From a virus, in IMG/VR virus record IMGVR_UViG_3300045988_161245, positions 64,001 to 128,000 of that record: a stretch of 64,000 nucleotides of DNA; one strand, given 5' to 3'. The notes below the pieces were generated by a model. That model was not told where the DNA came from and made no database searches. It saw nothing but the letters and a program-made list of their open reading frames with translations. The translations under genes were made by a program, and so were the position numbers. Positions 10,302-41,053 of this stretch are shown here, in pieces. The first letter of the stretch is position 1. The number at the start of each line of letters is the position of its first letter.

Positions 10302-11552
10302 ATGATAACTGTAATTGATTCTATCATGGGATCTGGTAAAACCAGTTGGGCAATTCAACACGTTAATGAAGCTGATTACTGTAATGATCGTTTTCTTTAT
10401 ATAACTCCATTCTTAGATGAAGTAAAACGTATTATGGATAAAACGGATGTCGATTTCTTCCAACCACAAAACAGAGGAAAGGGCAAATTAAATAATATCA
10501 ATATGTTATTTCAGAAAGGTTCTAATATTGCTTCTACCCACGAACTATTTAAAAATTTTGATGAAAATACTCGATCTAACATAAGAGAAATTTCACAAAC
10601 ACTTAATTACACTCTTATTCTTGATGAGGTATTAAATGTAATTGAACCTTATACAGAATTAAAACAAGGTGATTTACGAATTCTTAAGCAAGGCGGTTGG
10701 ATTACAATTGACGAAGATGGCTTTGTTATATGGAATGAAAAAGAATATAAACTGGATAGCAAATATAACGACATTAAACAATTAGCAATCACAAAATCAC
10801 TGCTATGTATTAATGACACTATTCTTCTTTGGAGATATCCACCAGAAATTTTTTCTTATTTTAAAAATATTTATATTCTTACATATATGTTTGATGCAAG
10901 TATTTTAAAATATTATTTTGATGTATATCATATCGACTATACAGTAAAAAGTATTATACTTGAAAATGGATTTTATAAAATTGTAGATTATTATAAACCA
11001 GATACAACTAAATATCAGGATATCATTAATATTTACGAAGGTAAACTTAATGAAAATATTCCATGTAAACTTACATCATTTTCAAGTAGCTGGTTTGATA
11101 CTGCAAATAAAAATTATACAGATAAATTAAAAAATAACATTTACAATTATTTTACAAATATTATTAATTCTTCATCAAAAGATATTATGTGGACTTGTTT
11201 TAAGAAAGCAAAAAACAAACTAAAAGGTAAGGGATATACAAAACAGTTTGTTCCATGTAATTGTAGATCAACAAATGATTATAATGAAAAATCTACATTA
11301 GTTTATTGTTGCAATATCTTTTTTCATCCAGGAATAACTAACTTCTTTTCAAAACACAATTTAACATTAAATGCAAATAAATATGCTTTATCAGAAATGA
11401 TTCAATGGATTTGGAGAAGTAAAATAAGAAATGATGAAAAAATTAATATTTACATTCCTTCTGTCCGTATGAGAATGCTTCTCAAAGAATGGTTAAAATT
11501 AGATGATGAGAAAATTAATGAAAAAAAGTTTTTAGGAAGTCAAACTTCCTAA
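10302..11552 (+). CDS. P-loop NTPase with SF2-helicase-like motifs
   Basis: 416 aa. Walker A MGSGKTSW at the N-terminus, ITPF (motif Ia-like), and Walker B LILDEVLN. Confidence 0.55.
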   Translation: MITVIDSIMGSGKTSWAIQHVNEADYCNDRFLYITPFLDEVKRIMDKTDVDFFQPQNRGKGKLNNINMLFQKGSNIASTHELFKNFDENTRSNIREISQTLNYTLILDEVLNVIEPYTELKQGDLRILKQGGWITIDEDGFVIWNEKEYKLDSKYNDIKQLAITKSLLCINDTILLWRYPPEIFSYFKNIYILTYMFDASILKYYFDVYHIDYTVKSIILENGFYKIVDYYKPDTTKYQDIINIYEGKLNENIPCKLTSFSSSWFDTANKNYTDKLKNNIYNYFTNIINSSSKDIMWTCFKKAKNKLKGKGYTKQFVPCNCRSTNDYNEKSTLVYCCNIFFHPGITNFFSKHNLTLNANKYALSEMIQWIWRSKIRNDEKINIYIPSVRMRMLLKEWLKLDDEKINEKKFLGSQTS

Positions 11553-12227: not shown

Positions 12228-12527
12228 ATGAATACAGAAGTAAACACAGACAACGTTGCACTTACACAGAGATTATCATCTAAGACTACTAAAAATTATT
12301 ATACAGGCGGTACATTTCCTGCTATACCATCTCGTGAAGAATTTCATCGCTATGCATCAAATGTATTAAATTTATATGCTTTTGAGACTGATTATCCCCC
12401 ATTTCCTAGTTGTAATATTAATGCTGCAGCTTCTTCTATTGGATGGACAAAAAGTAATAATAAAAATAAGGGAAATAAATACAAATTTAAATCAACTAAA
12501 AATTCTACTAAGAAAGATCATCAATAA
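12228..12527 (+). CDS. hypothetical protein
   Basis: 99-aa ORF with an AAAGGAG RBS. Confidence 0.6.
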   Translation: MNTEVNTDNVALTQRLSSKTTKNYYTGGTFPAIPSREEFHRYASNVLNLYAFETDYPPFPSCNINAAASSIGWTKSNNKNKGNKYKFKSTKNSTKKDHQ

Positions 12528-12533
12528 TGTAAG

Positions 12534-15317
12534 GTGGTGATTATCATTAGTGAATTTGGAATTAAAATTAAAAATATCAGTGCTGGTACATTATATGATG
12601 TTAATTTAGGCACAAGAGATTATTTCTCATACACTGAAGCAATGCTTAATAATAGTTTATTTTCTGCTTTTCTTATAAAGAATGGTCTTAATGTATATAA
12701 AGGTGAATCTACTAGAGATATTATTTGCTTAGACTTTGACTTTGGTACAAGATCTTATGAGGATGAGCATAAACGAATTGAGCAGTTGTATAAAAATTCT
12801 GATGGCGAATTAAAGGAACGTCTTAAATACACTTTGGAGAAAGTTGAGAATAACAAGGATCTCTATGATGAGAAAAAGCGTGAGCAGATCAGAGATAAAT
12901 TCTACAACGAAGGTGTAGATGTTACTTATAAAACTAAGAATAAAGATGGCACTATTAAAAGTGAAGAAACAATTCACTATGAGATGTTGTTTCGAACCAG
13001 TGCTAAAGCAAAGCTTGGACAGGTTATCTTTATAAACTCTGAACTTTATGAAGTGGCTTACGAATGGTTAACTATCGGACTTGGAAAACTAATGACAGAT
13101 GACAATGCAAAAATTGTTGAGATGTCTGCCTATGCTCCACTTACTACATCTACCATCGTTGGAACTAAGTATATTCCTGTAGAGGATATTCTCATTCTTA
13201 GGGACCAAGATTCATTTTTTAAGACAATGGCTAACATTGTTCGTGCAGAAGATTACGTGGACTCTAAGGGTCGAATTTGTAAGAAATGTGTCGTAGACAA
13301 GAAGGTTACCGAAGTCAAGAATACACTTTGGGATGGCATGGGACTGATTGAAGCTGATTATTTTAAAGACTGCAGAAATGCTTATAATCCGGATTGGACT
13401 GTTAAGATTAATGGCATGGCTTTAATGAGACATCATTTATTTAAGATGTGTGGTTTTAAATCTCATATACAGTTATTTTTTAAGGATTGGTGTGAGAAAA
13501 CCGGTAATGATTATGAAACTTACCAGGTCCAAGACATGTTTGGTCATTGGCATTATTTGAAAGACATTAAGATTATCACTACTGACAACGCCATCAAATG
13601 GAAAAAATTTAAGGATTTAATGGGCGGCTCATTAGAATCTGCATATGAGTATTGGTGCAATAAGGTAAATGAAGATGGCAGCGTGTTCGGTATTGTAAAA
13701 ACCGATCATCCTAGTAAACTTGGTGAATATCAACAGCTCAGTTATCAGATGGTTAATACTCTCCCATGTACCAAAGATGATGTAAGGGATATTGCAAGCA
13801 CCAGTATTGAATATGTGGAGTTACTGAAGCAGGATAATAATGAGTTTGAGAAATTCTTAAGAAAAAATGCTAATGAGGTAAACCACTATGAGATGATGGC
13901 TGATTTATATGATCACAACCATGAATTTGGCAATAGTACATTTTTCAGACATGAGAAGTCAAAAATTATTTCCGCATATGTACATAAGCTTAGAAAAGGC
14001 AAGATTGTTGTGAACGGAGATAATTTAACTGTTTGTGGTAATCCATACGCTCTTCTACTCTATTCTGTTGGTGAGGATTTTACAAAAGATCCTACCCTTC
14101 AACCAGAATCTGGAACTATTCAATGTTATACAACAAGATTTAAACATGATGAATTTCTATGTGCATTTCGCAATCCGCATAATTCCCCAAATAATATTTG
14201 TTATTTTCACAATGTTTACAGTGATGAAATGGAAAAATACTTTGAATTTTCTTCAAATATTGCTGCAGTGAACTGTATTTGTACTGATGTACAACCACGT
14301 TTAAATGGTTGCGATTTTGACAGTGACTTCGTTTTAGCCACAAATCAGCCTACTATGGTAAGATGTGCAGCTTATTGCTATAAACACTACCCTACTATTG
14401 TTAATGATTTAAAAGAAAGTGGCGTGGTTTATAAAAGTAACAAATCAGAATATGCACGTATGGATAATACATTTTCTAAATCAAGAATCGGAATTGGATA
14501 TTCTAGTAATTTGGCACAGCTTGCCATGACTTATTACTGGAGTGAATTACAGGGTGATAGTCCAGATCCAAAAAGACTTGATGAGCTATCAGATAATTTC
14601 GTAATTCTAAGCGTTCTTGCTCAAGTAATAATCGATAGCTGTAAAAGACTCTATGAAATTGATGGAATTAAAGAGATTGATCGTATTAGCAAACTTCCAT
14701 GTATGACAATGAAAAAAGAAGTAATTGACAAAAATGGAAATAAAAGAATGAAAAAGTGTGACTTCCCTGAATTTATGAAATACACAAGAGAAATTGCTGT
14801 TACTAAGGATGGTAAAGAGCTTCCACAAGAAGATATTGAGGAATCCAAGAACAAATTAAAAGGACGAATCAATAAAGATCTTATATGCCCAATGAACTGG
14901 TTGCAGGAATGGTTGGATAAAATCCAGGGAGCAAGCACTAAGGTTACTACTCCTACTGAGAATTTCTTTATTAAGATGACAGGTGAAGGAAATTATAATC
15001 AAATGACCAAAATTATGACTACCATAGAAGAATATGATTCATATATAAAAAATATGCAATTATTATGTAGTGATAACGAAACATACTATGATTTAATTGC
15101 ACAAAAAGCGGCAGACATGGTGAAGGAAATTTCAAAAATGAAAATTAGAAATGTTGTCACTATTAATCGTCTTATTGAAATCAGTTTAGGAATAAGTACA
15201 GAAAAAGGTAGATCGAGTTATAGAAAAAGTAATCCACAAAAATATGCTAGAAAAACACTTAATCTTTTGTATAAATATAGCAAAGAAAAATTTTTAAATA
15301 ACTTTGTTTGCGAATAA
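12534..15317 (+). CDS. YonO / RdRP-like two-barrel (DPBB) single-subunit RNA polymerase candidate
   Basis: 927 aa. FRNPHNSPNN...(about 45 aa)...NGCDFDSDFVLATN mirrors the beta-prime pattern NRAPTLH...NADFDGDQM. WDGMGLIEAD resembles the RdRP (S/T)DG.G.IS motif. The start codon is ambiguous (GTG within the RBS, or ATT/ATC). Confidence 0.5.
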   Translation: MVIIISEFGIKIKNISAGTLYDVNLGTRDYFSYTEAMLNNSLFSAFLIKNGLNVYKGESTRDIICLDFDFGTRSYEDEHKRIEQLYKNSDGELKERLKYTLEKVENNKDLYDEKKREQIRDKFYNEGVDVTYKTKNKDGTIKSEETIHYEMLFRTSAKAKLGQVIFINSELYEVAYEWLTIGLGKLMTDDNAKIVEMSAYAPLTTSTIVGTKYIPVEDILILRDQDSFFKTMANIVRAEDYVDSKGRICKKCVVDKKVTEVKNTLWDGMGLIEADYFKDCRNAYNPDWTVKINGMALMRHHLFKMCGFKSHIQLFFKDWCEKTGNDYETYQVQDMFGHWHYLKDIKIITTDNAIKWKKFKDLMGGSLESAYEYWCNKVNEDGSVFGIVKTDHPSKLGEYQQLSYQMVNTLPCTKDDVRDIASTSIEYVELLKQDNNEFEKFLRKNANEVNHYEMMADLYDHNHEFGNSTFFRHEKSKIISAYVHKLRKGKIVVNGDNLTVCGNPYALLLYSVGEDFTKDPTLQPESGTIQCYTTRFKHDEFLCAFRNPHNSPNNICYFHNVYSDEMEKYFEFSSNIAAVNCICTDVQPRLNGCDFDSDFVLATNQPTMVRCAAYCYKHYPTIVNDLKESGVVYKSNKSEYARMDNTFSKSRIGIGYSSNLAQLAMTYYWSELQGDSPDPKRLDELSDNFVILSVLAQVIIDSCKRLYEIDGIKEIDRISKLPCMTMKKEVIDKNGNKRMKKCDFPEFMKYTREIAVTKDGKELPQEDIEESKNKLKGRINKDLICPMNWLQEWLDKIQGASTKVTTPTENFFIKMTGEGNYNQMTKIMTTIEEYDSYIKNMQLLCSDNETYYDLIAQKAADMVKEISKMKIRNVVTINRLIEISLGISTEKGRSSYRKSNPQKYARKTLNLLYKYSKEKFLNNFVCE

Positions 15318-23389: not shown

Positions 23390-25105
23390 ATGAAAAAGGA
23401 AACACAAGGATGTAAATATTGTGGTTACGAAAAAACATCAAAAAGAACAAAGAAACCGTTTGATGAATTTATAAAAGAATTGAAAGAAAGTCGTGGAGAT
23501 GAATTTACATACGTATCTGGCTATAATGGTGCAAGTTCAAAAGCTATTTTTAGACATCATATGAAAGATGGAAGTCATCATGATTTTAAAATGGTTCCAA
23601 AAAATTTAATTAATGGCACATATTATTGCCCTTGCTGCTCTGGATATCAAATTTATATAGGATATAATGATTTTAATACTAGAAGACCTGAGTTGGTAAA
23701 ATATTTATTAAATCCAGAGGAAGGTACAAAATATAGTGAATATAGCAATCATATATTAGAATGGAAATGTCCGGATTGTGGAAATATATTGAAAAAGAGA
23801 ATATCTGAAGTTAGTACAAGAGGTATTTGTTGTCCTAGATGCTCTGATGGGATAAGTTATCCAAACAAATTTATGTACAATTCATTACTCCAAATAAAAG
23901 ATTATTTAAATTATATTGAAAGAGAATTTCGTCCTGATTGGTGCAAATATACATATAATGAAAAAGAATGCTTTGGCGTATATGATATTTATTTCGAAAA
24001 AGATAATAAAAAATATATAGTTGAAATGGATGGTGGACTTGGACATGGGAATCGAACTTATACAAAATCGGATAAATCAAAAGATGAATTACTGGATATA
24101 GATAAAATAAAAGATCTACTTGCAAAAGAACATGATATTGAAGTTATACGAATAAACTGTGATTATGGATCAAATGATAGATATTCTTTTATATTAAATG
24201 AAGTTTTAAATTCTAAATTATCTTCAATTCTTAATTTATCTTTAATAGATTTTAAAAAATCAAATATTTTATCACAACAATCATTATTATTAAAAACTGT
24301 TGAATTATGGAATGATGGATATTCTGTAGGAAAAATAAGTTCTGAAATTGGTGTTTTTTCAGATACAGTAACACACTATCTTAAATCGGCACAAAAATAT
24401 GGTATATGCAATACATATTCAATAAAGGAAAGTAGAAATAGGTCTATATCAAATAAAATTGTGTGTATTACAACAAATAAAGAGTTTGATTCTATTGTTG
24501 ATGGTGCAAAATTTTATAATACATTAGCTACTTCTGTAAGTAAATGTTGTAGACATAAAGCTGGATATGCTGGTTATTATAATGGACAAAAACTTATTTG
24601 GATGTATAAAACGGAATATGATAATTTTCCAAAAGAAAAATTAAAAGATTATGTCCCAAAGGAAGATAATAATTATACAAAAGTTGTATGTTTAAATACA
24701 GGCGAGATATTTGATGGTATTATTTATGCTGCTGAAAAATATGGAGTGCTAGATAGTGGAATAACGGCATGTTGTTCAAAAACAACACATTATTCAGGTA
24801 AAGATTCTGATGGAAATATTTTGGTTTGGAGATATTTAGATGAATATAAACAAATGACAAAAGAAGAAATTAATACACTTCTATCATATAAAAGTATGGG
24901 TAAAAAGAAAGTTATATGTCTTAATACCTTACAAATATTTGATAATGCATACGAAGCAAGTGTGTGGTGTGGGTTAAATAATAAATTAATACTACAAAGT
25001 TGCTGTAGAAACGAAGTTAGATTTGCAGGAGTTCATCCTGATACCGGTGAAAAATTAAATTGGTTGTATTATAAGGATTATTTGAAAGAAAAAGAGGCTG
25101 CTTAA
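23390..25105 (+). CDS. free-standing homing-endonuclease-like protein: zinc ribbons, Vsr/DUF559-like PD-(D/E)xK core and three C-terminal DNA-binding repeats
   Basis: 571 aa. Multiple CxxC pairs. The core is YDIYFE...YIVEMDGGLGHGN...IEVIRINCDY. There are three repeats of the form KVVCLNTGEIFD...AAEKYG...CC...G...W.Y. Confidence 0.6.
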   Translation: MKKETQGCKYCGYEKTSKRTKKPFDEFIKELKESRGDEFTYVSGYNGASSKAIFRHHMKDGSHHDFKMVPKNLINGTYYCPCCSGYQIYIGYNDFNTRRPELVKYLLNPEEGTKYSEYSNHILEWKCPDCGNILKKRISEVSTRGICCPRCSDGISYPNKFMYNSLLQIKDYLNYIEREFRPDWCKYTYNEKECFGVYDIYFEKDNKKYIVEMDGGLGHGNRTYTKSDKSKDELLDIDKIKDLLAKEHDIEVIRINCDYGSNDRYSFILNEVLNSKLSSILNLSLIDFKKSNILSQQSLLLKTVELWNDGYSVGKISSEIGVFSDTVTHYLKSAQKYGICNTYSIKESRNRSISNKIVCITTNKEFDSIVDGAKFYNTLATSVSKCCRHKAGYAGYYNGQKLIWMYKTEYDNFPKEKLKDYVPKEDNNYTKVVCLNTGEIFDGIIYAAEKYGVLDSGITACCSKTTHYSGKDSDGNILVWRYLDEYKQMTKEEINTLLSYKSMGKKKVICLNTLQIFDNAYEASVWCGLNNKLILQSCCRNEVRFAGVHPDTGEKLNWLYYKDYLKEKEAA

Positions 25106-25142
25106 TGTAGTCTCTTTTTCTGATTAAAAGGATGGTGATTAT

Positions 25143-26195
25143 ATGGCAAACTTGCGTCAAGCAAAAACAGATGCAGAGTTACGAACCATGACTATAACAA
25201 ATGTTAAAAAGGCGTATTCAAATTTGGCAGAAGATTATAATCGCCTTCTTGATTTAGAGTTTATATATTGTCCTCATTGTGGAAAGTGGAAATCTATAAA
25301 AGCAAGTAACTTTTATTCATCAAATGATACAGTTGATGGAATTGAGCATTTTGCATGTAAGGAATGTATACTTAACATGTGTACAGATAAAAATAAAGAT
25401 GGTTCGAGATCTGATAATAAAGAAAAAACAATAAATACTTTTAGAAAATTGGATTGGTGTTTTATCGAAGATGATTATGATAAGCAGTTAGTAAAAACTA
25501 CTGAAGCGGTAAATGAAAAAGTAAGAAGCACAGCCGCACAACAGCTTATTGTAATGGTTCAGTCACTTCCACAGTATAATGGAAAAAATTTTTCAAATAG
25601 TGAATTTAACGATTCTACAGATGGATCTTTATCTTATAAAAGAAAGCCACGAAAAGAAATTGTAAAACTATTTGGTTCAGGACTTTCAAATGAAGATTAT
25701 TTGTATCTTCAAGACCAATATGATGATTGGTGTGAAAGAACACAGGTGGATTCTAAATCTCAACAAACATATATTGTTAGAATTTGTTTTAAATTGTTGG
25801 ATATTTGGAAAGCACAGAAATCAAGTAAAGACACAACAAAACTTGATGAATCTTTAAATAAATTAATGGATGCAGCAAATTTACAACCAAGACAAAATGT
25901 TGGAAATGCTGCTACAGACGCTTTAACTTTTAGTCAGTTGATTGAAAAATGGGAACAGGAAAAACCAATACCTGAACCAGATCCAGAATTTAAGGATTGT
26001 GATGGTATAGGAAAATATATTCGCGTATGGTTTAAAGGTGCACTATCTCATGCTCTTGGCTTAGAAGGCGGTTATTCTAAAGAGTATGAAGATTATGTTA
26101 GTCAATATGCCGTAACTAAACCAGAAGAACAAGATCTTGATGAAAAATCTGAAAGTATTTATAGCCAAATTTTTGGTGATGAAAGTCAAAAGTAA
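25143..26195 (+). CDS. putative terminase small subunit / DNA-recognition protein
   Basis: 350-aa ORF overlapping the terL start. Contains a CPHCG...CKEC zinc motif. Assigned by position only. Confidence 0.3.
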   Translation: MANLRQAKTDAELRTMTITNVKKAYSNLAEDYNRLLDLEFIYCPHCGKWKSIKASNFYSSNDTVDGIEHFACKECILNMCTDKNKDGSRSDNKEKTINTFRKLDWCFIEDDYDKQLVKTTEAVNEKVRSTAAQQLIVMVQSLPQYNGKNFSNSEFNDSTDGSLSYKRKPRKEIVKLFGSGLSNEDYLYLQDQYDDWCERTQVDSKSQQTYIVRICFKLLDIWKAQKSSKDTTKLDESLNKLMDAANLQPRQNVGNAATDALTFSQLIEKWEQEKPIPEPDPEFKDCDGIGKYIRVWFKGALSHALGLEGGYSKEYEDYVSQYAVTKPEEQDLDEKSESIYSQIFGDESQK

Positions 26196-27967
26196 TGGCA
26201 AAACGATTAAAACAAAATCTATCTGATTCCCAAATAAAAAAAAATAAAACTGACAAAATAATGAATATTGTTGCAGAAAGAGCTTCGTATTATAGAGCTA
26301 ATCCACATAGGTTTGTGAAGGATTATCTTGGAATAGAATTAAAATTATTTCAAAAAATACTACTCTTCTGCATGATGCATAATGATGCCTTTTATTATAT
26401 TGCTTCGAGGGGCCAGGGCAAAACTTACTTGGTATCATTATTTTGCGTTGTAAGGTGTCTTTTGTACCCTGGTACAACTATTGTGGTAAGTAGTTATACT
26501 TTTAAACAGGGAAAAGAAACAATAATGAAGATAACGGATGATTTTATGAGAAAATCTCCGTTATTACGAAGTGAAATAGCTAAATACAGTATAGGACAAA
26601 ATGATTGTTCGGTATATTTTAAATCTGGTGGTTGGATACAGGTAAAAGTTGCTGCTGAGTCATCAAGAGGTGCCCATTGTCAGATATTAATCATTGATGA
26701 AAGTCGTATGGTTCAGCAAAAAATAATAGATACCGTATTAAAGCCAATGCTTTCAGCTCCACGTACTCCTCCGTATATAAACAAGCCGGAATATAAGGGC
26801 AAAGGTTATGAGGAAATGAATAAAATCCTTATGATGTCTTCTGCCTGGTATAAACAATCTGAGATGTATGAAATTGTAAAAGCTTATGTGGCAAATATGC
26901 TTGATCCAAAGATGAAATATTTCATTTGTGATTTACCATATACACTTTCAATTGCAGAGCATCTTCTTATGCGTCAATCGATAGAAAATGAAATGTCTGA
27001 AGCTACTTTTTCTGATATTTCATTTAAAATGGAACGAGAAGGTATTTTTTATGGAAGTGGTGACGAATCGCTTTTCAATTTTAATGTATTAAATACACGT
27101 AGAATTTTACAAGATAGTTTCCATGATTTAGATTTTTATAGAAATAGTAATGTAAGGATTCCACAAAAACAAGCTGGAGAAAAACGTATATTAAGTCTTG
27201 ATATTGCACTTCTTGCATCAAAAAAACACGATAATGATGCTTCTGCTTTTATTATTAACAGTGCCCTTCCTACATCCTCAAACGATTACATTAGTAATAT
27301 AAAGTATATAGAAACACAAGAAGGATTAATGACTGAAGAGCTTGGTCTTATGACTATGCGCTATTTTTATCAATATGATTGTGATTATATTGCGATTGAC
27401 GCAAATGGTGTTGGACAAGGTGTATTGGATTATTTAATGCAGGATAGATATGATCCTGTTTATAATATGACATATGGTGCCTTAAATTGTTGTAATAATG
27501 ATGATTTAGCAGACAGGTGCAAAGTTCGTAATGCTCCAAAGGTTATTTATGCAATAAAAGCAAGTGCAAAATCAAATAATGATATGTGTCTTGCTCTTCG
27601 TAGTGGTTTTCAGAATGGAAATATTAATCTTTTAAATTCTGAAACTGAGATTGATGAAAAATTACAAAAGCTTATAAAAGGTTTTAATAAGTTGTCTGAT
27701 ACACAAAAAATAAAGCTTCGTCTTCCATATTATCAAACAACATTCCTTATTGAAGAACTTATTAATCTTGATCATGAAGTAAATAATGGACTTATTAAAG
27801 TTAAAGAAAAATCAGGAATGCGGAAGGACCGTTATTCTTCACTTGAGTATAATTATTATGTTGTTCAGGAACTCGCACTTAAACTTAAGCCAAAGAATAC
27901 AAATATGAAAAACCTCGCTGACATCCTACCAATACGTACAGCGAAGCGTCATTCTTATTTCGATTAA
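26195..27967 (+). CDS. terL: terminase large subunit
   Basis: 590 aa. Walker A ASRGQGKTY, Walker B QILIIDESR, and a C-terminal RNaseH-like nuclease motif YIAIDANGVG. Confidence 0.85.
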   Translation: MAKRLKQNLSDSQIKKNKTDKIMNIVAERASYYRANPHRFVKDYLGIELKLFQKILLFCMMHNDAFYYIASRGQGKTYLVSLFCVVRCLLYPGTTIVVSSYTFKQGKETIMKITDDFMRKSPLLRSEIAKYSIGQNDCSVYFKSGGWIQVKVAAESSRGAHCQILIIDESRMVQQKIIDTVLKPMLSAPRTPPYINKPEYKGKGYEEMNKILMMSSAWYKQSEMYEIVKAYVANMLDPKMKYFICDLPYTLSIAEHLLMRQSIENEMSEATFSDISFKMEREGIFYGSGDESLFNFNVLNTRRILQDSFHDLDFYRNSNVRIPQKQAGEKRILSLDIALLASKKHDNDASAFIINSALPTSSNDYISNIKYIETQEGLMTEELGLMTMRYFYQYDCDYIAIDANGVGQGVLDYLMQDRYDPVYNMTYGALNCCNNDDLADRCKVRNAPKVIYAIKASAKSNNDMCLALRSGFQNGNINLLNSETEIDEKLQKLIKGFNKLSDTQKIKLRLPYYQTTFLIEELINLDHEVNNGLIKVKEKSGMRKDRYSSLEYNYYVVQELALKLKPKNTNMKNLADILPIRTAKRHSYFD

Positions 27968-28072
27968 TAAATCTAACACTATCCATCAACCAACACCAAC
28001 TACTCTCCCACTTCTTACTTCTTAAAATAAATTCCAACCAATCCAAATCCAAATCAAAAATAGAAAGGCAGG
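27963..28072 (+). other. 110-nt completely G-free intergenic tract between terL and portal
   Basis: No G was found on inspection between 27963 and 28072. The composition resembles the 8.6-9.6 kb tract (atctaac, ccaac, cactc words). Confidence 0.9.
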
Positions 28073-28079
28073 TGTACCA

Positions 28080-29843
28080 ATGGGTAGACCCAAAGGTAGT
28101 AAAAATAAGCCAAAGGTGCAGGACGGTACACCTATTTCAAATAAAACCGTTAATACAGCTGCCTCAACTTCCACTTCGAAGTCAAAGGTAGCTCCTAAAA
28201 CAACTAAAACAGTCAATACAAAATCAACCACAACTAGAAATCAAACAAAGAAACTAGATAAAGTTGATAAATTACTGTTAAACAAATCAGCCACTGTTCC
28301 AACTATTGATACACCAAAAGGGAAGAAAACTGTAGCTGAAATGTCAACAACACTTACAAAGCATGAGCGTGTGCTTGAAATGGCAAAAACCACAAAAGCA
28401 ATGATAGATGCCTTGCAGCTTACCGATTTGTCTAAAACTGAATCGCGTACTTTCCAGACCTATTCCAGGGAAACACTTCGTACTTATATGAAATCACCAA
28501 AATCATACGAGTCTCAGTTAAGAAATTTAAGCCGGTATCTGTACAGACTTTGCTATGAGTACAGACGTATCTGTTTACACTATGCGACGATGATTTGTGG
28601 AGATGCATTTAATATTATCCCATTGGATGATCCTACGCAGGAAATGACTCCGGAGGAACGTACCAATACTTGGTATGAAACTATGATTCGTTGGCAACGT
28701 ATGGATTTTGCCAGCGAACTTGTAAAACTACTTCTTGTAGCTTGGCGTGAAGACTCTGTATACGCATATGTTTATGATGACTCTGATCAGGAAGGTGGAA
28801 CTTGTTTCTATCAGATTCTTGATGGAGATTATTGTAGAGTATCTTCTGTTGAAGCAGGTGTATTCAGATTTGCATTTGACTTTTCTTATTTCAGATCACA
28901 TGAAGCATATCTTGAATATTGGGATTCTGAATTTAAGTCTAAATATGAAGCATATCAGAAAGATTCTACATTAAGATGGCAGGAACTTGAACCTGAAAGA
29001 CAAGTTTGTTTTAAAGTAAATAGTGATGATCCGACTATGGATTACAGTCCACTAGCTAGTTTATTTCAGACGATCATAAATAATATTGATCTGTTAGAGA
29101 TTCAGGCAGTTAAGGATGAACTTAGCGCTTATAAACTTCTTGTAGCAAGATTAAAGCCATTAAGTGGAACTTCTGATCCTGACGATTTTGAAATTGATCC
29201 AGATACCGCATTAAAATATTATAACAAACTTGCAGCTAATGTTCCGCCATGTGTTAATGTTGTACTTTCTCCTATGGAAATTGATACAATTGAATTTAAA
29301 GATTTGAATAATACAGATGATACAGATATGGTTTCCAATTCAATATCTAATATTTTCAAGCATATTGGTGGTGTAATTCTTGACTCAGATAAATCTGGAA
29401 CAACAATTTATGAAGCACAGATTATTGCAGATATGAAATATGGTCAAAGTACATTATTACCTCAAGTGCAGAGATATCTAAATTTATATTTTAACTATGT
29501 TGTTGGAACTGGACATGGATACTTTAAGTATATAGATGGTGTTTGTCCTTACACAAAAAAAGCAAAACGTAAAGAACTTATTGAATCTGCCCAGAATGGA
29601 TTACCAAGAATGTCAGTTGGTGTCCTTGATGGAAATACACTTCTTGAGCAAATGTCTATGCTTAAGCTTGAGCGTGATTTAGGGCTTGTTGATTTGATGA
29701 GCAATCCACTTAGTACAAGTTATACGCAATCTGGTGATACTTCTACTACAGATACCGATCCTATTAATGGCGGTGCCCCAAGTAAAGATTCTGATGATCT
29801 AACCGACTCTGGTAGTAAATCCAAAGAACGTGGAAATGAGTGA
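28080..29843 (+). CDS. portal protein
   Basis: 587-aa ORF directly after terL. Typical size. Has a K/T-rich low-complexity N-terminus. Assigned by position and size. Confidence 0.65.
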   Translation: MGRPKGSKNKPKVQDGTPISNKTVNTAASTSTSKSKVAPKTTKTVNTKSTTTRNQTKKLDKVDKLLLNKSATVPTIDTPKGKKTVAEMSTTLTKHERVLEMAKTTKAMIDALQLTDLSKTESRTFQTYSRETLRTYMKSPKSYESQLRNLSRYLYRLCYEYRRICLHYATMICGDAFNIIPLDDPTQEMTPEERTNTWYETMIRWQRMDFASELVKLLLVAWREDSVYAYVYDDSDQEGGTCFYQILDGDYCRVSSVEAGVFRFAFDFSYFRSHEAYLEYWDSEFKSKYEAYQKDSTLRWQELEPERQVCFKVNSDDPTMDYSPLASLFQTIINNIDLLEIQAVKDELSAYKLLVARLKPLSGTSDPDDFEIDPDTALKYYNKLAANVPPCVNVVLSPMEIDTIEFKDLNNTDDTDMVSNSISNIFKHIGGVILDSDKSGTTIYEAQIIADMKYGQSTLLPQVQRYLNLYFNYVVGTGHGYFKYIDGVCPYTKKAKRKELIESAQNGLPRMSVGVLDGNTLLEQMSMLKLERDLGLVDLMSNPLSTSYTQSGDTSTTDTDPINGGAPSKDSDDLTDSGSKSKERGNE

Positions 29844-29849
29844 TAAATA

Positions 29850-30035
29850 ATGAAAGATAAAAAATTTATTTTTACATATGATAAAGAAGTTCGTGAGCAG
29901 TTGATCACTCTAGGTTATATAGAGGTTCAGACACCTGCTCATTTTTATATGTTTGTAAATAACAATAAGATGAATTTTGCTGAAAATGACATTGATATGT
30001 CTAAAGTAAAATTCACAAATATTATGTGTGTTTAG
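29850..30035 (+). CDS. small DUF5659-like protein (paralog family 1 of 4)
   Basis: 61 aa. Shares the pattern (F/Y)xxS..(L/V)R..L...G with ORFs 32005, 41617 and 46854. Confidence 0.5.
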   Translation: MKDKKFIFTYDKEVREQLITLGYIEVQTPAHFYMFVNNNKMNFAENDIDMSKVKFTNIMCV

Positions 30036-30092
30036 TCCTCTTTTCTAAGGGCTATTATATAGAAATTTTCAGAAAGGAGGTAAATACCAAAG

Positions 30093-31940
30093 ATGCGCAA
30101 TAAAACGCTACTTACTATTGATGATTTGGTCAAATTTTGCGAGGAACAGAAATTTGCAAAATTCAGTTCAAATGAAACAGGATATAAACTTGCAGTTAAA
30201 GTCCCTACTACTTTTGAATCGGAAGATTCTGTTGATGAAAATCATCGTGGTATGAAAAAAGTTAAAATTAAGATTTTCCATACTGGAGTAAATCGAAATA
30301 AATCTCGTGTTTCTAAAGAATCAGCAGAACGTGCAATGAAAACAATTCCAGACAGACCGGTACTCGCCGCTATTCATCAGCTTGACGATGGTTCGTGGGA
30401 TTTTGAAGGTCACGAAATGAAAACTGTTAGAAACGAAGAAACCGGTGAAGACGAAACAGTATATATCGAATCCCAAGTTGGATCATTTTCTTCTGAACCA
30501 GCATTTTGGGAACATGATGATAAATTAGATAAAGACTTTGTATGTGCTTATGCTTATATTGCTGAAGACTACACTCGCACCACTTCTATATTAGAAGAAA
30601 AAAACGGTACTAAAAATAGTTGTGAGCTTGTTATTGAGGAATTATCCTACGATGCAAAGGAAAAAGTTCTTGATTTAGATGATTTTTATTTAAATGCAAG
30701 CACCTTCTTGGGGTCTCGTGATGATGGTACTGAAATAGGAGAAGGAATGGAAGGTTCCAGAGCAGATATTGTTGATTTTAGTGAAGCACATAATTCAGTT
30801 TTGATTGATTTACAGACTAGACTTTCTAACGTTGAGTCTAAGTTAGAAAAGGTTTGTTTCAATAATAATACACAAATTAATCAGAAAGGAGGAAATGATC
30901 TGGTGAAATTTGAAGAATTACTTAAGAAATATAATGTAACAGCTGATGATATTACCTTTGATTATGAGGGGTTATCTGATGAAGAGCTGGAACAGAAATT
31001 TGCAGAAACATTTGATGATGACGGTGGCGCAGCTTCTGATGATGGAGCCGGTGATGCAGGTACAACTGATGGTAACTCTGATCCAGAACCTACTTCTGAT
31101 GAAAATGCAGACGAAGGCAATGGTGAATCTGATCATGTAGAAGAACCAGTAAATGAAGAGGGAGCTGGCGAAACTCAGGAAGAAAATCCGGTATCTGAAG
31201 AATCCGAAGATGAGCCTGTTGCAACATCCGATGATTCTAAAGAAAATCCAGTTGAGGAAGAGGCTTGTGGAGCAGATAATAAAAAGAAAAGGAAATACTC
31301 TATCACTACTGGTGAGAAATCTGCCAACTTCGAAGTTTCTCTCGATGAGAAAATTTGGGCACTATCTGATCTAGTAAATGCTCAGTATGGAGAGTCAGAT
31401 AACTGCTGGTACTCTGTAAAGGTTTATGAAAACTATCTTATTATGTATGATTATTGGACATGCATTGCTTATAAGCAGACATATTCTCAGGATGGAGATA
31501 ACTTCTCTCTCACCGGTGATCGTGTAGAAGTATATGCTACATATCTTACCAAAGAGGAATTAGATGAAGTTGAAGCGATGAGAAGCAATTATGCATCTCT
31601 TGTTGAATACAAAGAAAATGCAGAGTTTGCAAAACTTCATACACAGAGAGAAGAAATTCTTAATGCTGAGAAATACAACGATCTAAGAGATACAGATGAG
31701 TTCAAAGCTCTTGTTGAGAACATGGACCAGTACAGTCTTGTTGATCTTGAAAAAGAGGCAAAAGTTATTTTTGCTGACTTTATCACATCTAATGCAGGAA
31801 CTTTTTCTGCACACACTTCTGAAACAAAATCCAAAAAGAAATTTAATGGTGGAATGACATTTGGTGTTGGTTCTGAAAAACCAGAAGCTGATAATGAGAA
31901 TTCACCTTATGGAGATTATTTTAAATCTCTTAAAAAGTAA
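30093..31940 (+). CDS. putative prohead protease/scaffolding protein with a central poly-acidic linker
   Basis: 615 aa located between portal and capsid genes. D/E-rich region around 31000-31260. Coiled-coil C-terminus. Confidence 0.45.
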   Translation: MRNKTLLTIDDLVKFCEEQKFAKFSSNETGYKLAVKVPTTFESEDSVDENHRGMKKVKIKIFHTGVNRNKSRVSKESAERAMKTIPDRPVLAAIHQLDDGSWDFEGHEMKTVRNEETGEDETVYIESQVGSFSSEPAFWEHDDKLDKDFVCAYAYIAEDYTRTTSILEEKNGTKNSCELVIEELSYDAKEKVLDLDDFYLNASTFLGSRDDGTEIGEGMEGSRADIVDFSEAHNSVLIDLQTRLSNVESKLEKVCFNNNTQINQKGGNDLVKFEELLKKYNVTADDITFDYEGLSDEELEQKFAETFDDDGGAASDDGAGDAGTTDGNSDPEPTSDENADEGNGESDHVEEPVNEEGAGETQEENPVSEESEDEPVATSDDSKENPVEEEACGADNKKKRKYSITTGEKSANFEVSLDEKIWALSDLVNAQYGESDNCWYSVKVYENYLIMYDYWTCIAYKQTYSQDGDNFSLTGDRVEVYATYLTKEELDEVEAMRSNYASLVEYKENAEFAKLHTQREEILNAEKYNDLRDTDEFKALVENMDQYSLVDLEKEAKVIFADFITSNAGTFSAHTSETKSKKKFNGGMTFGVGSEKPEADNENSPYGDYFKSLKK

Positions 31941-32004
31941 TTTAGAAGTAAATTATAACAACTGAATATAGAAAAAATTTTATAGTTGAACGAGGTATTT
32001 ATTT

Positions 32005-32259
32005 ATGAGTGATGTATTTTATTGCTACTCTCCTACTCTTAGAAAGGAGCTTATGGAGAATGCACATCAAAGATATATTGCACGATCAGTCAATCCATCT
32101 ACCAATAGAGAATTTTGGATGTTCTTATATACAGATGAGTTGATTGATTATCTTAACAAGCGTCCTAAAACGAAACATAAGTATGTTAAGAATAGGAAGA
32201 ATCCTAAGTTCGAAAATATTGAGAATACTTCTTGTAAAAATACAGAAGTAAAAAAATAA
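32005..32259 (+). CDS. small DUF5659-like protein (paralog 2), upstream partner of an endonuclease gene
   Basis: 84 aa. YCYSPTLRKELMENAHQRYIARSVNPSTNREFWMFLYTDELIDYL parallels ORF 46854. Confidence 0.55.
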   Translation: MSDVFYCYSPTLRKELMENAHQRYIARSVNPSTNREFWMFLYTDELIDYLNKRPKTKHKYVKNRKNPKFENIENTSCKNTEVKK

Positions 32260-32285
32260 AAAGAACTTTTAGGGTTCTTTTTTAA
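32259..32285 (+). terminator. Rho-independent terminator
   Basis: aaagaac-ttttagg-gttcttt followed by TTTTAATT. Confidence 0.6.
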
Positions 32286-32304
32286 TTGAAAGTGAGGTTT
32301 ATTT

Positions 32305-33497
32305 ATGGGTATTACATTAACTAATGAAGAATTTCAAGAAAAGTTTTATAATAAATTTGATAAAAACGAGTATACACTAATTTCTCAATATACTGGTGGA
32401 TCTAATTTTATAAGAATTAGACACAAATGCGGATATGAATTTGAGAAAAGCCTAAAAATATAATTACACCAAGAGAACATCTTAATTGTCCAAAATGTTT
32501 TGGAAAATTATATACTAAGGTAATTCCTGGAATAAATGATATGGCAACAACAAATCCAGAACTAATACCATTACTAAAAAATCCAGATGATGCTTATAAG
32601 TATAAAACTAATACAAATAAGAAAATATATTTTATATGCCCTGTTTGCGGTAATGAACTATATAAAACAGGGAATGAAGTATATATGCATGGATTACAAT
32701 GTAAATATTGTAGTGATGGATTTAGTTACGCCGAAAAATTCATGAAATCTATATTAAGCCAACTTGGAATTAACTATATACATCAATATAATCCTGGTTG
32801 GGCACGACCATATAGATATGATTTTTATTTTGAATTAGATGATAAAAAATATATTATCGAAATGGATGGTGGAATTGGACATGGGAATTTTACTCGTGAT
32901 GGTAAACAAGATGTTGTTGGAAAACAAATTGATGACAAGAAAGATGCACTTGCAAAATCACATAATATAAATGTAGTTCGAGTTGATTGTAATTATATTG
33001 ATATAGAAAATAGGTATGATTATATAAAAGAACATATTTTAATTTCTGAATTATCTCAAGTCTTAGATTTATCAAAAATAAACTTTTCTTTATGCCGTAT
33101 CGTTGCAGAAAAATCAATATTTATTTCAGTTTGTGATTTAGTTAATCAAGGAATGCAAAGTTTTGTAGAAATAGCTGAGAAGCTTGAAATATCAAATACT
33201 ACTGTAAGTAGATATTTAAAAACTGCTTGTGAATCTGAATATCTTGATATAGATTATAACGATCTCAAACAACAATCCCTTGATATTGGATACCAAAAGA
33301 ACAAACAACGAAACGAGAACCGTCCAAACGGATTTAATCGAACACCTGTTAAATGTATTGAAACAGGTGAAATATTTAATTCTATGAATGCAGCGGATAA
33401 AAAATATGGCGGATGTGTAAGTAGTTATTTATCTGGACGAATTAAATATACTGGTCATTTAGATGACGGAACAGTTCTTCATTGGGAACGAATTTAA
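32305..33497 (+). pseudogene. Vsr/DUF559-like homing endonuclease gene disrupted by a frameshift in an A-run (32446-32449)
   Basis: The 52-codon ORF 32305-32463 and ORF 32541-33497 (open from 32445) together are collinear with the intact paralog at 23390. The core is YDFYFE...YIIEMDGGIGHGN... Confidence 0.6.
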
Positions 33498-33505
33498 AAT
33501 CATTC

Positions 33506-33536
33506 AGAACCTTCTATAACGAGGGTTCTTTTTTAT
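33506..33536 (+). terminator. Rho-independent terminator
   Basis: agaaccttc...gagggttct stem followed by TTTTTTATT. Confidence 0.6.
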
Positions 33537-33566
33537 TGCCTAAAAATATTAAAGGAGGAAACCGAA

Positions 33567-34112
33567 ATGGCATCTAATTTCGAAAAATATTTATACGACA
33601 AACATGGCGTATTTCATGCCACATTAATGCACGCAACTGATATTCCAAGTGCATTTTACACAATGGTTAATGAAGATGCAGAGATGGAAAATGGTTCTGT
33701 ATCTGTTCTGAAGCCAGAGAATTACGTAGAGGACGATGTATTTAAAGTAGAGGCACCAAAGATTACAGATAAAATCGTAATCCTTGCTAACGATGTAAAA
33801 ATCTACGAAGAGTACACAAAGAGAATGCAGGAAGAGTCCCAGTATTTTATTGGTCAGGGAGAAAGAATTCGTGCATTTGAAACATTCGAAACAGACAGAT
33901 TTAGCCTTTCTAAAGAAGCTTTCAAGGATGAAACAGAGGTTGAAGTTGGCAAATATGTTGTTGTTGATGGAACTGGTTTCAAATTAACAACTGTTGCTGA
34001 AGACCCAAACAAAACAGCTGTAACACATGGTTTTGTTGGCTATATCTACAAGCAGTGGCCAAACGGTGAATATGCAGTATTCGTTAAGAGAAATGCTGCA
34101 GTTGAAGCCTAA
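33567..34112 (+). CDS. putative head decoration or scaffold-associated protein
   Basis: 181 aa with an AAAGGAGGAAA RBS, immediately upstream of the capsid gene. Confidence 0.35.
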   Translation: MASNFEKYLYDKHGVFHATLMHATDIPSAFYTMVNEDAEMENGSVSVLKPENYVEDDVFKVEAPKITDKIVILANDVKIYEEYTKRMQEESQYFIGQGERIRAFETFETDRFSLSKEAFKDETEVEVGKYVVVDGTGFKLTTVAEDPNKTAVTHGFVGYIYKQWPNGEYAVFVKRNAAVEA

Positions 34113-34133
34113 TAGAAAGGAGGAAATATCATA

Positions 34134-35237
34134 ATGAGAAAATTATTATTTGCTGAATATACTGATTTAAATCAGGCAAAATTTAAAGATGCAAAAGATA
34201 TTAGAACTTTTACAAAAATTTGTATTGATACATATAATGGTACACTTCAGAACCAGTCTGTAGCAGATGCCAATACTGTAATTAGAACAAAATTTAGAGA
34301 AATTGCAGGACTTTCCGAGGACGCAACTGATAATCAGATTAAACGTGCATTAGGAAGAACTGCAGTAAGAGAAGCATTATTCGAGATTATTGAGGACACA
34401 ATTGATGATACATTGGTAACAGGTTGGTCAGCAGATCCATTCTTCAGAAAATATGTTGATTTTAAGAATACAACAATCGGAGAGAAAAACAGTTTCTATA
34501 TTAAAGATGATTGCATCCTTACTGTAGCAAAACTTTCTGGTGGACATCATGCAATTGAACGTCAGAGACTTGGTGCTGGACAGACTCGTACAGTTAGTAC
34601 AAGCTACTTTGGATTAGGCGTATACATGAGTCTTCTTAGATTTATGCAAGGCGTTGAAGATTGGAATGAACTGATTAACAAAATTACAGAGGCATTTGAT
34701 CGTTATGTAAATACAATGCTTCATGATGCCGTTATGTCTGCATCTCAGCAGCTCCCAGTTCCTACAAAATGGAATATCAAAGGTGAAGCTAAAGCTGAAA
34801 ATAGAGCAAAACTGAAAAGACTTATCTCTGACGTGCAGCTTGCTACCGGTTCTAAGGCAGTAATTATGGGTACTGAAGTAGCTCTTGGAGAACTTCAGAA
34901 CTTTGGTAATGTACAGTGGATTTCTAATGAAGCAAAATCTGATATTTATAGAATGGGTCGTCTTGGATCATTCGAGGGAACAGAGATTGTAGAGATTCCA
35001 CAGGCATTTGCTTACAATGATGTTGAGCACTATCTGGAAGATGATAAGAAACTTCTGGTTATGCCTAATAATATTGATAAGTTCGTTAAGTTCGTTTATG
35101 AAGGTTCTGATGCAACATTTGAAAGAAACGAAATGGGCGAGACTGGCGATGAGACAAAAGATTACCGTATTAGAACTTGTATGGGTCTTGAGACAATGAC
35201 TAATGTACGTTTTGGTACATGGACTCTTGAGGCGTAA
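34134..35237 (+). CDS. major capsid protein
   Basis: 367 aa with an AAAGGAGGAAA RBS. Followed by a strong terminator. Position is canonical. Confidence 0.65.
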   Translation: MRKLLFAEYTDLNQAKFKDAKDIRTFTKICIDTYNGTLQNQSVADANTVIRTKFREIAGLSEDATDNQIKRALGRTAVREALFEIIEDTIDDTLVTGWSADPFFRKYVDFKNTTIGEKNSFYIKDDCILTVAKLSGGHHAIERQRLGAGQTRTVSTSYFGLGVYMSLLRFMQGVEDWNELINKITEAFDRYVNTMLHDAVMSASQQLPVPTKWNIKGEAKAENRAKLKRLISDVQLATGSKAVIMGTEVALGELQNFGNVQWISNEAKSDIYRMGRLGSFEGTEIVEIPQAFAYNDVEHYLEDDKKLLVMPNNIDKFVKFVYEGSDATFERNEMGETGDETKDYRIRTCMGLETMTNVRFGTWTLEA

Positions 35238-35260
35238 TTTCGTCTAATATAAAAATATTT

Positions 35261-35293
35261 AGGAGTGTGGTTGATTACTACACTCCTATTTTT
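35261..35293 (+). terminator. Rho-independent terminator after the capsid gene
   Basis: aggagtgt...acactcct stem followed by ATTTTT. Confidence 0.7.
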
Positions 35294-35315
35294 ATGAATG
35301 AAAGGAAAAATAACT

Positions 35316-35978: not shown

Positions 35979-36000
35979 TTAATAAGATCGGAGGTACTAT

Positions 36001-38750: not shown

Positions 38751-38763
38751 AGGAGGCTCATAA

Positions 38764-40139: not shown

Positions 40140-40151
40140 GTCTGTTTTTTT
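40125..40151 (+). terminator. Rho-independent terminator overlapping the stop codon
   Basis: acagacc-aaactta-ggtctgt followed by TTTTTTT. Confidence 0.65.
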
Positions 40152-40180
40152 ATGCAAAAATTTAAAAGGAGGATACACAC

Positions 40181-40993: not shown

Positions 40994-41003
40994 TATTTTC
41001 TTA

Positions 41004-41036
41004 ATCCCATGGGCTAATATGTCCATGGGATTTATT
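41004..41036 (+). terminator. Rho-independent terminator after the tail tube gene
   Basis: atcccatgg...ccatgggat 9-bp stem followed by TTTATT. Confidence 0.6.
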
Positions 41037-41053
41037 GAAGGAAAGGAGATACC

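Follow-up and report, generated by a model that had tools for sequence, protein, structure and literature searches.

A distant YonO relative in an SPbeta-like phage of gut Clostridia, probably a single-chain two-barrel RNA polymerase serving late genes

Among the known relatives of cellular RNA polymerases (RNAPs), the simplest are the YonO-type enzymes, which have been discussed as ancestral single-chain models (PMC5467207). In the literature that we searched, a biochemical study was found for one of them only, YonO of phage SPbeta. Experiments showed YonO to be a DNA-dependent RNAP that is processive, requires the aspartate triad, and is responsible for transcription of the SPbeta late operon (PMC5467207). 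Two-barrel RNAPs are defined by eight residues, and the published definition of their triad is DxDxD, without a fixed Gly (PMC2919709). According to published accounts, YonO-like proteins and RNA-dependent RNA polymerases (RdRPs) show no homology to the trigger loop (PMC5467207) and lack both the fifth carboxylate (Rpb2 E836; PMC2919709) and the flap/SBHM insert found in the β barrel (PMC7824862). A further phage enzyme of this kind, gp66 of the crAss-like phage phi14:2, is a single-chain two-barrel RNAP with an RdRP-like fold that is large, packaged in the virion, and injected for early transcription (bioRxiv 10.1101/2020.03.07.982082).

In the present work, we analyzed 64,000 nucleotides of viral DNA (the window; positions 64,001 to 128,000 of IMG/VR record IMGVR_UViG_3300045988_161245), in which one gene encodes a 927-aa protein (Table 1). 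This protein is, with good probability, a distant relative of YonO: a single-chain two-barrel DNA-dependent RNAP that serves the downstream late genes. A single-subunit two-barrel polymerase of the YonO/RdRP type had been proposed in an earlier note on this DNA, and the proposal is supported by a profile match to YonO and by the RDR2/QDE-1 fold. The open reading frame (ORF) and the motif strings cited there are all present, in the order given, and the "about 45 aa" placed between R-N-P and DFDSD is right, since P548 to D594 is 46 residues.

Table 1. Coordinates in the window of the polymerase gene, its motifs, and its neighbors
Feature	Position	Strand	Basis or remark
YonO-like single-subunit two-barrel RNA polymerase gene (putative)	12534..15317	+	ORF, GTG start; PHROG 8308, hhalign, AF2, Foldseek
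Possible alternative polymerase start	ATT 12546	+	
First (β-like) barrel region, aa ~226-310	13209..13463	+	Model strands; approximate boundaries; D267, R299-x4-K304
WDGMG motif (aa 266-270); D267 = fourth, metal-B-side aspartate	13329..13343	+	Invariant columns; within WDGMGLIEAD, aa 266-275 (nt 13329-13358)
RHHLFK (aa 299-304); R299 and K304 = two basic residues from β-like barrel	13428..13445	+	Invariant columns
Second (β′-like) barrel region, aa ~492-603	14007..14342	+	Model strands/helices, invariant columns, hhalign; approximate boundaries
R546-N-P548	14169..14177	+	Equivalent to Rpb1 R446/P448 and QDE-1 R962/P964 (PMC2919709); within FRNPHNS, aa 545-551 (nt 14166-14186)
D594-F-D596-S-D598, catalytic aspartate triad; Ser597 = clade consensus	14313..14327	+	Invariant Asp columns; within NGCDFDSDF, aa 591-599 (nt 14304-14330)
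99-aa ORF	12228..12527	+	Ends 7 nt before polymerase gene
YonV-like ATPase, SF2 helicase fold	10302..11552	+	~1 kb upstream of polymerase gene; YonV 42% identity
Downstream packaging, head, and tail block	23390..61755	+	Same strand as polymerase; SPbeta analogy (PMC5467207)
Terminase	26195-27967	+	
Portal	28080-29843	+	

Homology to YonO is evident at the profile level. When the family profile was compared with SPbeta YonO, hhalign returned a probability of 99.0% (E 8.8e-18) over 499 columns (query 153-720, YonO 138-659) and paired RNPH with YonO's RSPH and DFDSD with its DNDGD. The negative control, an unrelated 1317-aa phage protein (phage 1706 orf55) that had been tried as a YonO-like relative and rejected, reached a probability of 0.2%. 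We count against this assignment (i) the borderline BLASTP result (E 0.037) and the negligible pairwise similarity; (ii) the alignment of only ~500 of the 927 residues; and (iii) the N-terminal ~150 and C-terminal ~200 residues, which have no counterpart in YonO. Both proteins are single chains of ~840 to 930 aa that carry both barrels, and their eight active-site residues agree in identity and order. They differ in that YonO has DNDGD rather than DFDSD, spaces the aspartate and the arginine of the first barrel by 17 instead of 32 residues, and ends in a Cys-rich CxxC...CxxC segment that the 927-aa protein does not have. Pfam gave no match for any of the 46 aligned family members, the 927-aa protein among them, with the RdRP model PF05183 unmatched at E <= 0.1 for the 46 and at E <= 10 for the 927-aa protein itself, so that the relation to cellular RdRPs is one of fold and active site only. 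NCBIfam gave no match for the 927-aa protein and none for YonO itself, phmmer and profile hmmsearch against the PDB found no match for the protein or its family, and PHROG 8308, matched at E 2e-84, is marked "unknown function."

The fold points the same way. A confident AlphaFold (AF2) model of the protein (pLDDT 87.9, pTM 0.84) has RDR2 or QDE-1 as all of its best 17 Foldseek matches in the PDB (E 3.3e-13 to 6.3e-8; TM ~0.4 to 0.47; best E of 3e-13 for maize RDR2 and 1e-11 for QDE-1), and these matches span ~900 to 1,000 columns. The proposal passes the fold check named in the earlier note, as it passes the profile check. Judged by this overall match to RDR2 and QDE-1, the model is predicted to contain two facing double-psi barrels. 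The structures concerned (QDE-1, 2J7N, 7Y7P-T, and 5FSW; RDR2, 7W82, 7RQS, and 7EU1) have the same eight invariant residues at nearly equal spacing (PMC2919709) and have a first-barrel (S/T/W)DGxG motif in common with the 927-aa protein, yet their sequence identity to it is ~10%, and they are eukaryotic silencing enzymes acting on RNA (QDE-1 also on DNA), whereas no silencing context is seen here. Sequence, profile, and Foldseek searches of the PDB returned no YonO-type entry. Weak matches to β′/Rpb1 come after RDR2 and QDE-1 (E 0.02 to 0.1). With β/β′ (Rpb2/Rpb1), the protein has in common the NADFDGD-type triad and the R-x-P of the β′ barrel as well as the aspartate and two basic residues of the β barrel (PMC2919709), but it carries both barrels in one chain, and a multisubunit β′ assignment does not fit its Ser in place of Gly at the fourth triad position or its weak, partial fold matches. 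In the BFVD list, segments of crAss-like virion RNAPs are weak matches that stand lower than the top one; phi14:2 shows only distant structural similarity (E 7.5e-3), and in contrast to gp66 the 927-aa protein is encoded outside the structural block.

Our alignment of the 927-aa protein with 45 homologues (28 to 58% identity) shows that the catalytic residues are conserved. D267, R299, K304, R546, P548, D594, D596, and D598 follow the order and spacing of the eight two-barrel RNAP residues, and all of them, together with G268, are invariant in the 46 sequences, each Asp of the triad being present in 46 of 46. R546-N-P548 sits 46 residues before D594, in the superfamily range of ~40 to 46. The first three residues correspond to D709/R738/K743 of QDE-1 (PMC2919709) and to D249/R266/K271 of YonO, with an R-x4-K spacing that is identical in the three proteins (YonO, RLPWVK). 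The full arrangement thus reads D267-R299-K304...R546-x-P548-46-DxDxD here, D709-R738-K743...R962-x-P964-43-DxDxD in QDE-1 (PMC2919709), and D249-R266-K271...R492-x-P494-41-DxDxD in YonO. In some homologues, group I introns lie exactly within the DxDxD codons; this and the size of the clade speak for purifying selection. In our reading, the active site would lie between the two barrels of one polypeptide: the β′-like barrel would give R546/P548 and the triad D594/D596/D598, which would hold the catalytic Mg2+, and the β-like barrel would give D267 for the second metal and R299/K304, which may contact the NTP and the 3′ end of the RNA.

The Ser of DxDSD had been described in the earlier note as replacing a usually invariant Gly. 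This description does not hold, since published definitions use DxDxD and Ser is the clade consensus, occupying the fourth triad position in 106 of 127 cluster representatives (Gly in 8, Thr in 8). Gly is not a fixed residue of the two-barrel superfamily either; crAss-like phages carry DFDxD, and the fourth position of phi14:2 gp66 is likewise not Gly (bioRxiv 10.1101/2020.03.07.982082). Clustering at 50% identity divides the clade into at least 1,220 clusters, and its members are common in Lachnospiraceae and Clostridia of the human and animal gut, where they lie in prophage-like regions of the genome; Eisenbergiella tayi DSM 26961 and Lachnospiraceae bacterium CE91-St56 are examples of bacteria with a homologue. 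The phage is SPbeta-like, with a host in a gut Clostridia lineage rather than Bacillus, and its enzyme belongs to a divergent clade of YonO-like phage enzymes related to eukaryotic cellular RdRPs. The kind of enzyme was already recognizable, and the individual finding will not surprise a specialist; the large clade is unmatched by any Pfam-A or NCBIfam model. Its recognition should improve the annotation of gut phages, and structural and promoter studies can draw on its many naturally occurring sequence variants.

The genomic neighborhood resembles that of SPbeta. A 416-aa protein is similar to YonV, an HU protein to YonN (52% identity), a 350-aa protein to YonG (31%), and the terminase to YonF (40.5% over 550 aa), and the tape measure, found in pieces within the late block, matches YomI. 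The SPbeta order yonO, yonN, yonJ (exonuclease), yonG, yonF, yonE is the order of the window, whose polymerase gene stands where yonO does with respect to the HU, YonG-like, terminase, and portal genes, and a giant tape measure and a YonV-type protein are present in both phages; synteny extends to Enterocloster phage PMBT24. The polymerase gene, a phage gene, precedes the late packaging and structural genes and has neighbors of the early or middle kind (helicase-like YonV, exonuclease, HU, PhoH, ClpP). By analogy with SPbeta YonO, the enzyme most likely makes RNA from double-stranded phage DNA. It would itself be produced early or midway and would then transcribe the downstream same-strand packaging, head, and tail genes, the block that we infer to be its template, and late expression would thereby be independent of the host polymerase. 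The 99-aa ORF is probably cotranscribed with the polymerase gene; a relative that is 89% identical has it at 71% identity, and comparison with SPbeta YonP revealed no similarity. The YonV-like ATPase, whose homologues carry PF27199 (YonV_C) and whose AF2 model matches XPD in Foldseek (E 2.8e-8), is possibly linked to transcription; as an obligatory partner of the polymerase it was rejected, since just 6 of 80 genome loci have it close to the polymerase gene.

The template and the targets of the enzyme are inferred from YonO, and two other roles have to be weighed. The protein could be an RNA-dependent RNA polymerase that copies or amplifies phage or host RNA (e.g., dsRNA or antisense RNA) instead of transcribing DNA. 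Its best solved-structure matches are RDR2 and QDE-1, RNA amplification has been raised as a possible role of YonO-like proteins (PMC2919709), and close homologues are labeled "RNA dependent RNA polymerase" in nr, GenBank, and BFVD, where the top match bears this name ([Podoviridae sp.], E 5e-49, TM 0.78). Such public labels, however, come from fold or profile similarity and not from assays, and template preference is unreadable from the fold because the enzymes with the closest solved structures are RNA-dependent or accept two kinds of template; QDE-1 uses DNA templates too (PMC9508822). Given that YonO, the only characterized phage member, is DNA-dependent and transcribes late genes (PMC5467207), that the gene takes the place of yonO in a gene order like that of SPbeta, and that no RNA-silencing partners are seen nearby, we regard this role as unlikely.

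The same judgment applies to a competent two-barrel polymerase with a non-late role, such as replication priming, early or middle transcription, or synthesis of a specific noncoding RNA, which also appears improbable to us. It would fit the early or middle genes around the polymerase gene and the unannotated noncoding RNA with which the YonO transcript of SPbeta begins (PMC5467207), but the SPbeta precedent indicates late genes, and the two-barrel DNA polymerase PolD is not among the top 50 Foldseek matches. It would also fit the distribution of a recurrent motif, TTTAGAAGT, the most repeated intergenic 9-mer, with four of four copies intergenic and on the + strand: this motif also occurs upstream of early-region genes, and the polymerase gene or operon itself is preceded by a variant of it. 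A last alternative, a fortuitous motif match or an inactive structural relic, is effectively refuted and hardly credible, since DxDxD alone arises in 26% of shuffles of the protein, but the ordered composite DG..R-x4-K..RxP..DxDxD in 0.065% (20,000 composition-preserving shuffles), and the eight residues are invariant over deep divergence, with strong profile (YonO) and fold (RDR2/QDE-1) evidence.

For the DNA-dependent late polymerase that we favor, we could assign no promoter. The motif had been noted earlier at 9965 as a recurrent, non-sigma-like sequence that would fit a YonO-type polymerase. The motif is real; the strand-specific intergenic element TTTAGAAGTA-N-AT(A/T)TT lies at 9502, 9968, 21034, and 31941, and variants of it are located at ~12120 and 52859. 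The link of the motif to the polymerase is not established, given the early-gene copies and poor conservation. The exact 9-mer is not enriched in 80 related loci, the motif is absent from the yonN-yonK region of SPbeta, and upstream of the polymerase gene it was found only in the two closest relatives carrying it. A scan for sigma-70-type promoters gave 66 sites against 69 expected, and Rfam reported no intron at the motif sites. That TTTAGAAGT is the promoter of the 927-aa polymerase is thus unproven. We consider it doubtful that the DxDSD clade forms a functionally distinct, sigma-free YonO-like branch with TTTAGAAGTA-N-AT(A/T)TT as its own short promoter; if true, it would supply the first defined promoter for any YonO-type enzyme, a point that PMC5467207 did not settle, and gut phages would yield a compact orthogonal transcription system.

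The N terminus of the protein may be 4 residues shorter than the GTG call implies, because the Met at which most homologues begin (MSEYGIK...) aligns with Ile5, and because an SD-like AAGGTGG at 12531-12537 overlaps the GTG.

The ORF at 12534-15317 on the plus strand is real, and its 927-residue product had been proposed in the earlier note to be a two-barrel RNA polymerase, a reading supported by the family profile and, as far as a predicted model can carry it, by the fold. Compared singly with YonO, the single-chain RNA polymerase of Bacillus phage SPbeta (SPBc2 NC_001884, yonO), the protein gives a BLASTP E value of 0.037. A profile of 46 sequences (the window protein and 45 representatives at 28-58% identity) aligns with the single YonO sequence at a probability of 99.0% (hhalign; E 8.8e-18; 499 aligned columns; query 153-720, YonO 138-659), pairing FRNPH with LRSPH and DFDSD with DNDGD, and the same profile reaches 0.2% against an unrelated control of 1317 aa, phage 1706 orf55. 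We regard this comparison, made at the level of profiles, as decisive for homology with YonO. The AlphaFold2 model (input alignment of 41 sequences; mean pLDDT 87.9, pTM 0.84) has 17 significant Foldseek matches in PDB, exclusively cellular RdRPs, among them maize RDR2 (7W82; E 3.3e-13, TM 0.46), several QDE-1 entries (E about 1e-11 to 6e-10) and Arabidopsis RDR2, followed by a long tail of weak beta-prime/Rpb1 chains (E 0.02-0.1). Among predicted viral structures, the best match is 'RNA dependent RNA polymerase [Podoviridae sp. ctxqo3]' (E 5e-49, TM 0.78), with crAss-like phage virion polymerase segments, phi14:2 included, at lower ranks. The profile and fold matches thus provide both a profile hit to the superfamily and, in the model, a fold consistent with double-psi barrels.

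Eight residues are common to all two-barrel RNA polymerases and define them, as Ruprich-Robert and Thuriaux showed (PMC2919709); these are D709, R738, K743, R962, P964 and D1007/1009/1011 in QDE-1, and Rpb2 D837/K979/K987 with Rpb1 R446/P448/D479/481/483 in RNAP II (PMC2919709). Judged by the 46-sequence alignment, all eight appear among the invariant columns of the family, which include D267, G268, R299, K304, R546, P548, D594, D596 and D598. Residue spacings agree across the window protein, QDE-1 and YonO, from the first-barrel Asp (D267, D709 and D249, respectively) through the basic pair (R299/K304, R738/K743, R266/K271) and the R-x-P residues (R546/P548, R962/P964, R492/P494) to the first triad Asp, which follows the proline by 46, 43 and 41 residues. 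Each string quoted in the earlier note is found in the protein (WDGMGLIEAD, residues 266-275; FRNPHNS, 545-551; NGCDFDSDF, 591-599; RHHLFK lies at 299-304), and its gap of about 45 residues corresponds to the 46 between P548 and D594. DxDxD by itself turns up often, in 26% of shuffles that preserve the protein's composition; the ordered composite DG...R-x4-K...RxP...DxDxD occurs in 0.065% of 20,000 such shuffles. The view that Gly is usually invariant in the triad motif and Ser non-canonical was not borne out: at position 4, 38 of the 46 aligned sequences have Ser, as do 106 of 127 cluster representatives with a locatable motif (the rest being G 8, T 8, A 2, L 2, V 1), so Ser, the clade consensus, is a trait of the clade and not an oddity of the window gene. 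The published definition is DxDxD, with Gly at position 4 not included (PMC2919709; PMC7824862), and crAss-like phage polymerases have DFDxD (bioRxiv 10.1101/2020.03.07.982082).

The protein belongs to an already known kind. The surveys cited in PMC2919709 and PMC7824862 had already made YonO-like proteins known in phages and genomes of Firmicutes, and a 68%-identical homologue is labelled 'MAG TPA: RNA dependent RNA polymerase [Caudoviricetes sp.]', a label that the record of Enterocloster phage PMBT24 also gives its homologue. What deserves recording is the large size of the DxDSD clade, for which an exhaustive HMMER search across 1.84 billion cluster representatives yielded at least 1,220 clusters with E <= 1e-3, of which 605 had E <= 1e-30 (~2,400 clusters at 90% identity in a word-indexed search), and that it is matched by no Pfam-A or NCBIfam model, its link to YonO being at profile level only. 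Pfam gave nothing significant for the protein and no match common to the 46 members, NCBIfam matched neither it nor YonO, and PDB gave no match by phmmer or by profile; PHROG 8308, which it does match, is annotated 'unknown function'.

The window, phage DNA with a G+C content of about 33%, also carries tRNA genes and a very long tape measure. By sequence comparison, several of its proteins are directly homologous to SPbeta proteins from the neighbourhood of yonO (table), the tape measure matching YomI at 31% identity over 154 aa. SPbeta has the same gene order (yonO, yonN, the exonuclease gene yonJ, yonG, yonF, the portal gene yonE), and in PMBT24 the polymerase gene is followed by those for histone-like protein, terminase and portal; the 927-residue protein therefore occupies the YonO position of an SPbeta-like module. 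Its homologues in genome assemblies come mostly from Lachnospiraceae and other Clostridia, including the isolates Eisenbergiella tayi DSM 26961, E. porci, Lachnospiraceae bacterium CE91-St56, Clostridium tepidum and Hathewaya proteolytica; this distribution points to temperate phages of gut anaerobes as the carriers. The YonV-like protein has a Walker A motif and a model (AF2, pLDDT 83) with an SF2 helicase fold (XPD 3CRV, E 2.8e-8); its gene adjoins the polymerase gene in the closest relatives only (6 of 80 loci). The genes for tRNA-Tyr and tRNA-Pro and the weaker fourth tRNA-like match lie in the ORF-poor 2.3 kb that separate the recombinase gene from the late block.

Features of the window and polymerase-gene inserts in two related loci of other assemblies (L065, L073)
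Feature	Position	Strand	Remark
TTTAGAAGT, exact	9502, 9968, 21034, 31941	+	all intergenic
TTTAGAAGT, one mismatch	52859
416-aa YonV-like protein	10302-11552	+	YonV, 42% identity, E 7e-77
Terminator-like hairpin	12056-12077		just upstream of next hairpin
TTAAGAAGAATTTTAT, degenerate copy	~12120		upstream of 99-aa-ORF and polymerase operon
Hairpin CCTACTA...TAGTAGG	~12135-12175	+	just downstream of motif variant
SD-like AAGGTGG	12531-12537	+	overlaps annotated GTG start at 12534
tRNA-Met	15597-15670	+	directly 3' of polymerase gene
PhoH-like ATPase	16129-17172
ClpP	17150-17833
Exonuclease	18112-19485
HU	19601-19873		YonN, 52% identity
Tyrosine recombinase	20053-21033
tRNA-Tyr	22204-22287	+
tRNA-Pro	22330-22412	+
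tRNA-like match	22510-22584	+	weaker
350-aa protein	25143-26195		YonG, 31% identity
Large terminase	26195-27967		YonF, 40.5% identity over 550 aa, E 4e-126
Portal	28080-29843
Homing-endonuclease-type genes	23390-25105, 32541-33497, 47064-48377	+	phrog_4538 or HNH, DUF4379 zinc fingers
Tandem group I introns	37354-37660, 37700-37987	+	RF00028, 82 and 72 bits, above gathering score
Tape measure pieces	45030-46772, 48509-49354, 53608-61755	+	phrog_4211 497-720, 722-942, 945-1701
L065 insert, ~1.0 kb	3492-4504		after DQD; RF00028 E 5.6e-8, below gathering score
L073 insert, ~0.85 kb	~3090-3950		after NNG; RF00028 E 1.9e-4, below gathering score

YonO is a processive DNA-dependent RNA polymerase, inactivated by changing three Asp to Asn, that transcribes the 37 SPbeta late genes as one operon, beginning upstream of yonK; PMC5467207, the source of these findings, leaves open which promoter and cofactors, if any, it uses. 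By analogy, the window protein, for which homology, fold, residue conservation and synteny are observed, most likely does the same job, although we infer both its template type and its target genes. Two-metal catalysis would rely on D594/D596/D598 and D267, with R299, K304 and R546 holding the NTP and the 3' end of the RNA in place, and transcription would cover the plus-strand packaging, head and tail block that starts after the HU and recombinase genes. The main rival is the RNA-templated role that the public labels imply, with which the fold is compatible, as RdRPs are its closest counterparts among solved structures and QDE-1 accepts DNA as well as RNA templates (PMC9508822); against it speak the one characterised phage member, YonO, and the SPbeta-like synteny.

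A recurrent motif at 9965 had been thought to fit a YonO-type polymerase. The motif does recur: of all intergenic 9-mers in the window, TTTAGAAGT is the most frequent, and three of its four exact copies lie directly 3' of a TAA stop. The fit is not established: reading it as the polymerase's promoter is weakened because the exact 9-mer is not enriched in 80 related loci, is not found in the SPbeta region holding the YonO start site, and stands before early-region as well as late genes, and because the motif upstream of the polymerase gene was found in two relatives (L084 at 9584, L004 at 9655) and not in the others. The 3' half of the motif resembles a -10 hexamer, with no -35 element. The exact copies, with variants at 52859 and ~12120, represent a strand-specific intergenic element, TTTAGAAGTA-N-AT(A/T)TT. 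The degenerate copy TTAAGAAGAATTTTAT aligns with TGTAGAAGTA in one 89%-identical and one 66%-identical relative. The hairpin 3' of it recurs in the 89%-identical relative (L084) with arms TCCACT...AGTGGA, that is, with compensatory changes, possibly serving as a leader structure for the polymerase operon. At the gene itself, the Met with which most homologues begin (MSEYGIK) corresponds in the alignment to Ile5 (ATT at 12546), and several close relatives also have Ile there, with short upstream extensions of variable length; translation may start at AUU, or the protein may carry a short extension at its N-terminus.

In some homologues elsewhere, group I introns interrupt the gene precisely at the DxD|xD codons. 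Such a split fits the many truncated 50%-cluster representatives, whose matches stop at query residues 592-601 or begin only at 601-608. In L065 and L073 the insert falls within or immediately ahead of the DxDxD codons; no insert interrupts the gene of the window. In the structural block, the two tandem introns lie between ORFs 36782-37462 and 37983-38750, which suggests a split structural gene. The tape measure gene is broken into three colinear pieces; between them lie an HNH homing-endonuclease gene (47064-48377) and a 4.2-kb insert that holds four genes on the minus strand (50608-53545), and Rfam matched no intron there. The three scattered homing-endonuclease genes of the late region fit the phage's many introns and split genes.
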